Of a stretch of 50,478 nt of DNA, positions 3,183-27,187 are shown in pieces. A model generated the notes under the pieces. The model did not search any database. It was not told the DNA's origin and saw only the letters and a list, made by a program, of their open reading frames with translations. Origin of the DNA: a virus (Duplodnaviria > Caudoviricetes); the IMG/VR virus record IMGVR_UViG_3300005805_000123, positions 1 through 50,478 of that record, one strand, 5' to 3'. Position numbers and translations under genes: made by a program. Within the stretch, counting starts at the first letter, position 1, and the number at the start of each line of letters is the position of its first letter.

Positions 3183-3500
3183 ATGCTCTCTACTCAATAC
3201 CGCCTTCGTCTTGAATCAATCTGTGAGAAGATTGTAAAAGGTGAATCTGTAGAGTTAAGTGAAATGATCTGGGCAGAAAAACTAGCAAAAGCAAATAGAT
3301 CTGCAGCAACTCTTTTGAGACAGGCAAGACGCCGTGCGTCTAATCCAGATATGCAAGAGGGTGGCCTTGATGATTTTATGAATGCTCTTGATTTAGGAGA
3401 TCCAGATCCTAGCAATCATAGAATAGGATTTTATAGTGCCGATGATATTGTTGACTTTTTTGCAGAGGATAAACCAGAAGATTGGAGACAGAGAGACTAA
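3183..3500 (+). CDS. Conserved cyanophage hypothetical protein
   Basis: MLSTQYRLRLE...GDPDPSNH...DWRQRD; GGAG RBS. Confidence 0.8.
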   Translation: MLSTQYRLRLESICEKIVKGESVELSEMIWAEKLAKANRSAATLLRQARRRASNPDMQEGGLDDFMNALDLGDPDPSNHRIGFYSADDIVDFFAEDKPEDWRQRD

Positions 3501-3703
3501 TGAAAAGTTTTAAAGATTTTTTGTCTGAAGAAGAAAAATCATCTAAAAAAACTGCTGGATATATCAATCAACCAAAAGGAAATGAAAAGTGCTCTAATTG
3601 CAATATGTGGAGACCACCAAATGCTTGCACTGCTGTAAGTGGTAAGATCTCTCCGAATGGTTGGTGCAAGTGGCACCAGTACGATAGAAAGAATCAAGAT
3701 TAA
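3500..3703 (+). CDS. HiPIP-like (high-potential iron-sulfur) protein
   Basis: Y...P....KCSNC...C.AV.G.ISPNGWC.W matches the HiPIP four-Cys pattern; TAATG coupling. Confidence 0.75.
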   Translation: MKSFKDFLSEEEKSSKKTAGYINQPKGNEKCSNCNMWRPPNACTAVSGKISPNGWCKWHQYDRKNQD

Positions 3704-3718
3704 GAAATAATAAAATTG

Positions 3719-3755
3719 GTATAACATTTTACAAACTTACTTGTATAACTATAGT
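3719..3755 (+). promoter_or_regulatory. NtcA-type box overlapping a putative sigma70 promoter
   Basis: GTA-TAACATTT-TAC (GTA-N8-TAC) at 3719-3732 overlaps TTTACA(3728)-N16-TATAGT(3750). Confidence 0.5.
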
Positions 3756-3776
3756 GGTAGGTCTATAATGACCTTA

Positions 3777-3822
3777 CGTTCATCAGAGGAAACTCTGACG
3801 CAAGTAAGCCGACTCGGAACGG
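3777..3822 (+). ncRNA. Glutamine-riboswitch-like aptamer 1 (glnA/Downstream-peptide class)
   Basis: CGTTC-A-[TCAGAG-GAAA-CTCTGA]-CGCAAGTAAGCCGACTCG-GAACG: P1 CGTTC/GAACG, P2 with GNRA loop; upstream of DUF4278-like ORFs. Confidence 0.7.
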
Positions 3823-3824
3823 AT

Positions 3825-3997
3825 CGTTCATCTATGGAGCAACTTTTTTTAACCTGTTTACAAGCACAACTTATTATTAATAGGATTAACACAAACCAAG
3901 TTGTTAATACTCAACAAAAAAATAATCTTGTGTGGGAAGTTAAACAAGTAACAAAAAAAGGATGCTTTATAGACGCAAAAGCCGACTGAAGGAACGG
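3825..3997 (+). ncRNA. Glutamine-riboswitch-like aptamer 2 with ~130-nt insertion in P2
   Basis: CGTTCA-TCTAT...ATAGA-CGCAAAAGCCGACTGAAG-GAACG; same flanking sequence as aptamer 1. Confidence 0.6.
3834..3989 (+). CDS. 51-aa protein nested in aptamer 2
   Basis: MEQLFLTCLQAQLIINRI...KGCFIDAKAD; ATG lies in the P2 5' strand and the stop lies in the aptamer 3' half. Confidence 0.65.
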   Translation: MEQLFLTCLQAQLIINRINTNQVVNTQQKNNLVWEVKQVTKKGCFIDAKAD

Positions 3998-4030
3998 GAC
4001 TAACCATCTCATTTCTTTAGGAGAACCCCA

Positions 4031-4168
4031 ATGTCGAAAGTAGTTTATCGTGGTCAAGCATACGACACAGAAGTTCGTAAGCAGCAACAATCACAACAGC
4101 AACAAGAACCCCAACAATACAACGAAACCTATCGTGGTGTTCGTTTTGTAAAGGAGGGACACAAATGA
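4031..4168 (+). CDS. DUF4278-like small protein
   Basis: MSKVVYRGQAYDT...ETYRGVRFVK; two YRG motifs; AGGAG RBS. Confidence 0.8.
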   Translation: MSKVVYRGQAYDTEVRKQQQSQQQQEPQQYNETYRGVRFVKEGHK

Positions 4169-4263
4169 AAAAACTTAATGTACTTCAGATCATCAAAGAG
4201 CAAAAGCAAAAAGAACAACGTCGTCATCAAGCACAACTTGCTAATGTTGGAGCAGGAAAATGA
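4165..4263 (+). CDS. 32-aa basic helical peptide
   Basis: MKKLNVLQIIKEQKQKEQRRHQAQLANVGAGK; AGGAGG RBS, ATGA overlap. Confidence 0.7.
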   Translation: MKKLNVLQIIKEQKQKEQRRHQAQLANVGAGK

Positions 4264-4346
4264 TTGCTACAATTGCTGCAATCACTGGAGCATCAACAGC
4301 ATTCATTTTTTTAATCTATGCAGAAGTTCTATTGCTGAGTAAGTAA
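4260..4346 (+). CDS. 28-aa hydrophobic peptide
   Basis: MIATIAAITGASTAFIFLIYAEVLLLSK; ATGA overlap. Confidence 0.6.
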   Translation: MIATIAAITGASTAFIFLIYAEVLLLSK

Positions 4347-4501
4347 TGGAAGATTACCATTATCATTATGATGATATGGATAAGGACAGTAGAGGTCCTG
4401 CGTGTTATCTATTAACATATCGTGGGTGTCGTTATTGGTCTTGTTATCGCATTCATTTGGTAGAATGGTTTGAAAAAATGTTTAAGTCAGAGGGGTCTTG
4501 A
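4346..4501 (+). CDS. 51-aa YRG-motif peptide
   Basis: MEDYHYHYDD...YLLTYRGCRYW...; TAATG coupling. Confidence 0.6.
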   Translation: MEDYHYHYDDMDKDSRGPACYLLTYRGCRYWSCYRIHLVEWFEKMFKSEGS

Positions 4502-4517
4502 CAACCCCTCTTTTTTT
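4489..4517 (+). terminator. Rho-independent terminator
   Basis: AGAGGGGT-CTTGACA-ACCCCTCT followed by a T tract. Confidence 0.85.
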
Positions 4518-4526
4518 GTGTATAAT
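4498..4526 (+). promoter_or_regulatory. Consensus sigma70 promoter embedded in the terminator
   Basis: TTGACA-N17-TATAAT. Confidence 0.85.
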
Positions 4527-26332: not shown

Positions 26333-26417
26333 GCGAGTATGGCGGAATCGGTAGACGCACCGGACTTAAAATCCGTTGGGCATTGTGCCCGTGGGAGTTC
26401 AAGTCTCCCTACTCGCA
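26333..26417 (+). tRNA. tRNA-Leu (UAA)
   Basis: Acceptor GCGAGTA/TACTCGC, anticodon loop CT-TAA-AA, long variable arm, GTTCAAGTC T-loop; CCA not encoded. Confidence 0.95.
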
Positions 26418-26767: not shown

Positions 26768-27124
26768 ATGAAAACTTGCTCTAAGTGTGGTATAGAAAAA
26801 CCATTGACAGAATACCATTCTGCTGGTATTATAAATGGAAAAAATTATATTCGCGGAGAGTGTAAAGTTTGCCAAAAAAAGGTTGTTAAGAAAAGAAGTA
26901 ATTCTATTCGTGAAGATTATATTGAGTGGAAAAAAACTCTTCAATGTAATCGATGTGGTTTTGATGATTATCGTGCTTTACAATTTCATCACGAAAGAGA
27001 CAAAGAACATAATATAGCAGCAATGCTAAAAGGTGGATTTGCTCTTGAAAATATCAAGCAAGAAGCAAAAAAATGTGAAGTTCTTTGTGCCAATTGTCAT
27101 CAAATCCATCATTCTCGCCTCTAA
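26768..27124 (+). CDS. HNH homing endonuclease
   Basis: KTCSKC..EKP, C..CG...ALQFHH, KCEVLCANCH..HH. Confidence 0.88.
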   Translation: MKTCSKCGIEKPLTEYHSAGIINGKNYIRGECKVCQKKVVKKRSNSIREDYIEWKKTLQCNRCGFDDYRALQFHHERDKEHNIAAMLKGGFALENIKQEAKKCEVLCANCHQIHHSRL

Positions 27125-27187
27125 AGCATTGTGGTGATGCACCGCTCTTGTAAAGCGGAGACGACAGTTCAATTCTGTCTAGAGGCT
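27117..27187 (+). tRNA. tRNA-Thr (UGU)
   Basis: Acceptor GCCTCTA/TAGAGGC, D stem GCAT/ATGC, anticodon arm CCGCT-CT-TGT-AA-AGCGG, T arm GACAG-TTCAATT-CTGTC. Confidence 0.92.

Follow-up and report, generated by a model that had tools for sequence, protein, structure and literature searches.

The nested gene and its setting

A gene of 51 codons that begins in one strand of a riboswitch stem and ends among the nucleotides expected to form the ligand core raises the question of how one RNA can serve both as sensor and as message, and what each role does to the other. The locus lies in the window, meaning the whole 50,478-nucleotide stretch analysed here, which comes from a linear source record of a T4-like cyanophage (IMGVR_UViG_3300005805_000123); judged from protein features, we take the window also to carry the end of psbA and genes for glutaredoxin, PhoH and gp32. 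Two tRNA genes are present at 26333-26417 and 27117-27187. The small open reading frames (ORFs) that flank the nested-gene leader match phage families in PHROG profiles, and a homologous leader element adjoins SpeD and thymidylate synthase in S-PM2 and is carried by other annotated T4-like cyanophages as well. Positions 3777-3997 correspond to a tandem glnA-type (glutamine-I) riboswitch, with an NtcA box upstream and a DUF4278-like gene downstream. The feature is real and conserved and, as far as the literature searched extends, is a glutamine-I riboswitch in a previously undescribed form; the regulatory logic set out below is hypothetical. The features mapped from 3719 to 4511 lie on the + strand apart from the NtcA-type box, which is given no strand.

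Two interlocked units

The original prediction treated the two units as independent aptamers. Comparison of homologous sequences gives good support to a different arrangement, in which the units are interlocked rather than side by side and form an outer pocket of canonical type and an inner pocket that is circularly permuted. In the outer pocket the 5' strand of unit 1 and its AGUA would be brought together with the GAAG-GAACG of unit 2, the shared central helix serving as P3. Along the window, the 5' strand of the outer P1 (CGUUC, 3777-3781, with C1 and G2 of the glutamine-I pocket) would pair with 3992-3996, a partner assigned from cross-unit covariation. It is followed by the P2a hairpin (3783-3798) and by J2/3 of the outer pocket (3799-3806), in which G3800 is the G22 equivalent, C3801 is the linchpin that pairs with G3997, and AAGUA is one strand of the E-loop (position numbering as in the available parts of PMC6698751 and PMC6212724). 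Two 8-nt segments resembling P3 loops pair with each other as the central helix, of which the 5' strand, AGCCGACU (3807-3814), meets 3980-3987 in six pairs and two A.C positions; the two inner positions of this helix are mostly A.C across the elements. The inner, circularly permuted P1 is a GAACG-GAU-CGUUC hairpin (3817-3829), found in the minimum-energy fold, that includes G3822, the inner linchpin partner of C3976. The P2b stem and its loop (3831-3973) enclose the nested ORF, and the closing segment, 3974-3997, holds the inner J2/3 (G3975, C3976), the 3' strand of the central helix (3980-3987), the E-loop strand GAAG (3988-3991), the 3' strand of the outer P1 (3992-3996) and the linchpin G3997, while doubling as the codons ..AKAD*.

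The support for this fold comes from covariation. Among 232 distinct complete elements (one misparsed row was dropped), the outer linchpin, which joins position 23 of unit 1 to position 60 of unit 2, is paired in all 232 (CG in 157, GC in 75), against 147 for the 23-60 pair within unit 1, and the inner linchpin, the reverse cross-unit pair, is paired in 223 (208 CG, 15 GC), against 146 within unit 2. At the end of the central helix, in the 221 elements of standard length (11 were left out), the pairs across units form in 221 and 220 elements with four pair types each; the P3 end pairs that would give each unit its own three-way junction and local P3 form in 127 and 125 and show no covariation. 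When the elements are reduced to 31 core haplotypes, cross-unit pairs are formed in 31, 27, 31 and 30 of them and within-unit pairs in 19, 18, 16 and 15. On a tree built from downstream flanks (173 rows), each of the two outer linchpin sites changes 12 times and all of these changes coincide; for comparison, two sites 13 nt apart share 5 changes. For 20 short-loop elements, hand-picked for diversity, the interlocked model leaves 98.5% of positions paired with a covariation of 0.312 (0 of 500 shuffles), against 76.8% and 0.028 (363 of 500 shuffles) for the side-by-side model. In five isolates both strands of the central helix have been shortened together into a perfect 5-bp helix.

Two independent aptamers side by side, joined at most by a loop-loop kiss, would agree with the way in which the literature lists tandems. 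The P1 strands are invariant and identical in both units, and hence cannot discriminate between the folds, and nearest-neighbour energies go against the interlock (14.3 versus 10.5 kcal/mol in the window), the side-by-side fold being favoured in 185 of 201 elements and the interlocked fold cheaper in only 16, in a comparison where the constraints were unequal and tertiary terms absent. Nevertheless, the linchpin and P3 pairs expected inside each unit cannot form in between a third and a half of the elements and do not covary, and AGUA is confined to unit 1 and GAAG to unit 2, the two facing each other as an E-loop at the end of the cross-unit helix. The side-by-side fold was therefore rejected on covariation despite its favourable folding energies, and we regard it as very improbable. 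The region 3775-4045 has a folding z of -3.5.

Probable glutamine-I identity of the two pockets

The ligand contacts of glutamine-I aptamers, as given in the available text of PMC6698751, are C1:G59, G22 and C58, and a G23-C60 pair is described as critical in the portion of PMC6212724 at hand. The interlocked fold places the P1 pairs C1-G59 and G2:C58 together with G22 in the outer pocket (C3777, G3778, G3800, C3995, G3996) and the same contact set in the inner pocket (C3825, G3826, G3975, C3820, G3821), the P1 strands having been partly fixed by the search patterns. The outer E-loop is present, AAGUA (3802-3806) and GAAG (3988-3991) facing each other where the cross-unit helix ends; the inner pocket has no E-loop, AAA (3977-3979) lying opposite CG (3815-3816). 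Glutamine is the likely ligand of both pockets.

Standard models recognise the element poorly. Rfam RF01739 matches unit 1 (3775-3825) with 28.1 bits (E 0.0011; gathering cut-off 35), and the same scan of the window returned no match for unit 2. For the empty tandem of ACG-2014f, Rfam aligns a single outer aptamer at 41.1 bits, above the cut-off. The glutamine-II riboswitch (RF01704), a single-unit pseudoknot with its second stem downstream, has no match in the window, and RF01704 matches in homologs (24.6-32.7 bits) fall below its cut-off of 33.

A different ligand or a bound protein, or an outer pocket that alone binds glutamine with the inner unit as scaffold, would account for the replacement of the inner E-loop by AAA/CG, and the sub-threshold score of unit 1 and the weak glutamine-II matches in homologs lean the same way. 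Against this stand the equivalents of C1, G2, G22, C58 and G59 in both pockets and the covariation of both linchpins, and the NtcA box and DUF4278 gene, considered below, point to nitrogen on sequence grounds. A non-glutamine or scaffold role is accordingly improbable, and glutamine binding by both pockets is the reading carried forward.

Genes inside the P2 stems

The coordinates given in the original prediction are all confirmed. The P2 of unit 1 is closed by the predicted GAAA tetraloop (3783-3788 with 3793-3798, loop 3789-3792) and is empty in the window; many homologs hold an ORF of 59-70 codons there. The P2 of unit 2, proposed as TCTAT (3831-3835) with ATAGA (3969-3973), extends to 11 pairs (3831-3841 with 3963-3973). 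The nested ORF (3834-3989) also has the layout first described, with its ATG in the 5' strand of P2, its final codons, DAKAD, formed by aptamer nucleotides, and its TGA at 3987-3989.

The proposal that P2 should covary across inserts of variable length was borne out for unit 2, where the mean paired run of P2b is 6.6 versus 3.7 after permutation and slid registers give less than 0.9. Across 99 distinct unit-2 inserts, P2 positions 2-5 are paired in 100, 91, 91 and 75%, against 78, 45, 57 and 58% when permuted. For 49 unit-1 inserts the paired run is 4.6 versus 3.3, with no excess beyond position 3; relatedness of the inserts was left in all of these pairing statistics. All 195 distinct long inserts have their ATG on the P2 strand, no further in than the first 8 nt.

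A viral scan with the RNA motif only covered 120 loci of about 1600 estimated, 115 of them distinct; 106 of these are complete elements and 9 are cut or unresolved. Each P2 loop may be empty or contain an ORF, the ORFs of the two loops being paralogous and having two cysteines; all four combinations are common, with both loops empty in 27 elements, only unit 2 filled in 38, only unit 1 filled in 18 and both filled in 23. The riboswitch core was found in 11 of 11 isolates examined, among which S-PM2, S-CREM1 and ACG-2014f have empty loops, S-SRM01, S-SM1, P-SSM2 and S-RIM2 have unit 2 filled, and P-SSM4, P-HM2, S-CAM3 and Syn9 have both filled; a count of 412 records by blast (E up to 10) includes chance matches. 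The states are labile: of 629 locus pairs whose flanks are 85-92% identical, about half differ in state, and on the 173-row tree the states change 36 and 41 times, where shuffled labels give 53 and 57. In cellular genomes a loose pattern returned 120 loci (about 280 estimated), of which 3 are real elements, located on contigs of 3.8-7 kb from assembled or single-cell genomes and having phage-like neighbours.

Several further configurations were observed. The unit 1 of L176 has a 20-nt P2 insert whose two ends are those of a long insert with an ORF, and which looks like a deletion scar. In L122 (11-592, - strand) a 194-aa homing-endonuclease-like ORF (PHROG 314, E 4e-5) occupies the short linker between units, a third insertion site in the same RNA, and runs through unit 2 to stop at the same TGA; a 44-nt remnant of it persists in L278 and L301. 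In L138 (578-905) three units stand in a row, the middle one holding a unit-1-type ORF and the cores of units 2 and 3 being complementary and shortened.

The nested protein and its tail

Both aptamer halves surround the nested gene in 77 of the 80 viral loci found with the nested protein, the other 3 being cut by contig ends. The ORF of the window encodes 51 residues, matches PHROG 504 (E 2.2e-6, residues 5-49) and is predicted to form a hairpin of two helices, flanked by the invariant Cys8 and Cys44. A profile search gathered 930 proteins at 90% clustering (298 at 50%); a 2888-aa repeat protein among the matches looks spurious and was rejected. Selection at the protein level, which had been put forward as a check, is apparent as purifying selection, with pairwise dN/dS of 0.16-0.33 for the unit-2 ORF and 0.10-0.30 for the unit-1 ORF (first 3 and last 7 codons left out; pairs not independent) and 635/224/1162 differences by codon position. 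Cys8 and Cys44 are invariant in 71 aligned sequences, and exactly two cysteines are present in 80 of 80 unit-1 and 109 of 110 unit-2 proteins. When the unit-1 and unit-2 sets are aligned their cysteines coincide (probability 75%, E 2.6e-5), and both sets are modelled as helical hairpins (pLDDT 86, 83), in which a disulfide between the two cysteines is likely. The nested protein has no Pfam match above cut-off and no match to a solved fold at E <= 0.001; its best viral-model matches are uncharacterised cyanophage proteins, and its matches in Atlas are unnamed clusters, under 0.9. The nested ORF of P-SSM2 (L447:740-889, AY939844.2) and that of DSL-LC03 (163522-163674) stand without annotation.

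RNA runs are not evidence of expression: three runs hold only 4-5% of the window's words, and contigs from relatives show aptamer halves and no start, strand or level. An RNA contig that skips 3838-3970 fits an empty relative and does not demonstrate splicing.

The stop codon of the unit-2 ORF is the same J3/1 codon in 109 of 115 cases, adjoining the outer P1 strand about 40 nt before the downstream start. This constancy could suggest that the gene acts mainly in cis, ribosomes that cross and terminate in the core stripping the pockets and so setting downstream output by glutamine and translation capacity. Against such a role, the two invariant cysteines, the confident helical-hairpin model and a loop dN/dS well below 1 show selection on the protein itself; moreover, many elements are empty, and RNA constraint alone can explain the fixed stop. 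A main role in cis therefore seems quite improbable. Where a compensatory RNA change deletes the stop codon, as in S-SRM01, L281 and L296, the ORF reads on, and it is therefore the RNA that dictates the DAKAD tail of the protein. An aptamer-type tail is carried by 114 of 146 distant relatives, as scored by a crude pattern. Of the relatives that have no such tail, three distinct ones were examined in context and proved to be ordinary free-standing genes (L453, L454, L455/L456); L457 proved a false match, and further context searches for tail-less relatives found nothing.

The lability of the inserts, the frequency of all four states, the free-standing PHROG 504 genes and the tail imposed by the RNA would also fit another account, in which the riboswitch is real and the nested gene exploits a tolerant loop behind a nitrogen-regulated promoter, being swapped by recombination between conserved flanks, with P2 pre-formed and the ligand of hardly any consequence. 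Yet the AUG never drifts into the loop, remaining on the P2 strand in all 195 long inserts across many stem sequences; the Shine-Dalgarno match at the nested start is weak (-3.9 versus -7.3 kcal/mol for the downstream gene); and any translation must still open the shared helix. A mere passenger is on balance unlikely, and coupling between nested gene and sensor is the preferred reading. Nevertheless, 45 of the 106 complete elements selected by motif have no insert in unit 2, and members of the protein family also occur on their own, so that neither the gene nor the RNA needs the other.

Promoter, NtcA box and downstream genes

Upstream of the aptamer lies an NtcA-type box, GTA-N8-TAC (3719-3732), centred 51 nt before the first aptamer C (consensus from the part of PMC3037559 available). 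A perfect box occurs in 156 of 197 distinct upstream regions, against a mean of 6 and a maximum of 13 after shuffling and at most 19 for other spacer lengths in the same regions, and its distance has its mode at 51-52 nt before C1; across the whole window, NtcA-type sites number 10 versus 7.8 by chance, a chance number only. At 19 sites the box instead covers the promoter and start, 12-14 nt ahead of the aptamer (upstream regions L083, L448, L450), and P-HM2 has three boxes. A HiPIP-like small ORF (3482-3703; PF01355, 21.8 bits, cut-off 22) is located directly upstream of the window's box.

A likely host-type promoter, judged from its sequence, follows at 3741-3769 (TTGTAT, 17 nt, TATAAT); a consensus promoter scan missed it because its -35 matches at only 3 of 6 positions. 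The corresponding promoter in S-PM2 and similar homologs is TTGACT-17-TATAAT. From this promoter, which NtcA would modulate, transcription would start near 3776. An in-frame ATG at 3768, from which reading through both aptamers had been envisaged, does exist, but it overlaps the TATAAT -10 hexamer (3764-3769), and an upstream in-frame ATG with open frame occurs in only 6 of 92 comparable loci (not de-duplicated); it is thus probably outside the transcript, and read-through from it was rejected.

Beyond the riboswitch, the expression platform (3998-4030) contains the Shine-Dalgarno sequence AGGAGA (4019-4024) and leads into a DUF4278-like (IF17-like) gene of 45 aa (4031-4168), probably the main regulated gene. 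It matches PHROG 5049 and scores 16.8 bits against Pfam PF14105, below the cut-off of 25.3; its positional counterparts in P-SSM2 and P-HM2 exceed that cut-off (29.0 and 28.8 bits), these being the 2 that pass among six isolate homologs, of which 3 fall below and 1 has no match. DUF4278 is the family of the glutamine synthetase inhibitor IF17. Three more coupled small ORFs (4165-4263, 4260-4346, 4346-4501) extend over 4165-4501, the first with a weak match to PHROG 545, and a terminator-like hairpin (4489-4511) closes the unit. This hairpin overlaps the promoter of the next gene (4498-4526), a perfect TTGACA-17-TATAAT.

A proposed switching mechanism

The preferred reading, to which we assign a probability of roughly 0.6, is that the interlocked leader binds glutamine, that translation of the gene within the inner P2 would melt both pockets, and that the ligand dampens this translation. 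The interlocked pairing, the closure of P2, the selection on the protein, the NtcA box and the lability of the inserts are established at the level of sequence comparison. That folding and translation exclude each other, as originally proposed, would follow from the geometry, and the exclusion would be wider than envisaged, taking in both pockets, since the ORF runs through the helix that the units share and its end adjoins the outer P1 strand. A ribosome on the nested ORF would have to unwind P2b, the inner junction and this helix before terminating next to that strand. Translation of the nested gene would be weak, though stronger with the pockets empty, and would reset the sensor in every round. 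The nested AUG is predicted to be paired already in the ligand-free state (P about 1.0 in the window, median 0.67 in 113 inserts), and the ligand may therefore add little to the block.

The DUF4278-like gene downstream would be the main output, controlled through its translation. Two expression platforms occur, according to whether the outer linchpin is C-G or G-C (at 3997 in the window and in homologs). In all 64 C-type tails the linchpin C forms an anti-Shine-Dalgarno hairpin with the ribosome-binding region, an arrangement proposed for Synechocystis gifB in the available part of PMC6212724, and the predicted opening cost, 7.4 kcal/mol, drops to 4.8 kcal/mol; loci of this kind are predicted to be ON switches. 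The window is of the G type, and for the 117 G-type tails, including that of the window, the predicted opening cost rises slightly when the P1 strand is taken (4.6 to 5.7; 6.0 to 6.7 kcal/mol). A whole-leader model lowers the opening cost in the G-type window (10.3 to 5.6 kcal/mol) and opens the ribosome-binding site in 192 of 201 elements, a count that the constraints bias in that direction. On these models the two platforms may have different or opposite switching directions.

A more ambitious version of this reading is conceivable, with odds somewhat short of even. It would make the element a two-output nitrogen switch exclusive to cyanomyophages, in which a cooperative two-pocket sensor drives the IF17-like gene and the P2 cassettes oppositely, ribosomes reset it, and the aptamer arms act as recombination sockets for gene capture.

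Relation to known systems

ORFs are found in the loops of other structured RNAs, including the endonuclease ORFs of group I introns and HEARO elements, and leader ORFs such as mgtL occur in the mgtA Mg2+ leader. As in those cases, the coding sequence lies in a folded RNA and its translation competes with structure; unlike them, the ORF described here specifies a selected, folded small protein, starts in an aptamer stem and ends in the ligand core. The nested ORF gave no sign of splicing or of codon-sensing attenuation.

Among the closest known systems is the glutamine-I riboswitch (glnA RNA, RF01739), including the Synechocystis gifB/IF17 leader. As far as the available portions of PMC6212724, PMC6698751 and PMC5393176 describe it, the phage element shares the P1 strands CGUUC/GAACG, G22, the 23-60 linchpin, the E-loop and the three-way junction, and, with the gifB/IF17 leader, a downstream DUF4278 gene, a promoter with an NtcA box and, at C-type loci, a linchpin C in an anti-Shine-Dalgarno hairpin. 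It differs from that leader in being phage-encoded, in having two cores interlocked through a shared helix, in an inner core that is circularly permuted and has no E-loop, and in carrying protein genes inside its P2 loops. Tandem glutamine riboswitches are known (PMC2864571, in part), and the accessible text of PMC9481103 counts 157 doublets and 4 triplets, with two units in a row as here; the section of the Weinberg alignment available (part 128) contains units with cores identical to those here, AAGUA-AGCCGA and GCCGACU. In these sources the tandems are treated as separate switches of a pseudo-cooperative kind and their units are aligned singly; the words nested, interlock and phage are absent from the accessible text of PMC9481103. 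In the available Weinberg glnA alignment file, a motif search for six typical starts of ORF-bearing units did not find them.

In phages, glutamine riboswitches appear only as rare Rfam matches in the available parts of PMC5473149 and PMC9004378, the former recording two phage aptamers and concluding that phages rarely use riboswitches; the core described here occurs in about 1600 viral stretches by estimate. The glnA RNA of S-CREM1, annotated as a plain Rfam match in the portion of PMC9964418 at hand, is a 99-nt feature that equals the empty form of the window's element. Standard scans miss the element because of its interlocked fold and inserts, ORF-filled forms escaping the Rfam cut-off. Within a literature search whose coverage of glutamine-riboswitch papers was partial, no description of the interlocked fold or of nested genes was found.

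The reading of tandem glutamine riboswitches changes as a consequence, at least for those of phages, and in this element nature supplies both an aptamer that is circularly permuted and an aptamer stem with genes inside it. How cyanophages sense the nitrogen status of their hosts can be tested directly with the element, for which natural empty and filled variants would serve as controls, and its core occurs in isolates that include Syn9, S-PM2, S-SM1 and P-SSM2. In P-SSM4 (L083:715-900) a manA RNA is found about 90 nt upstream of the same element.
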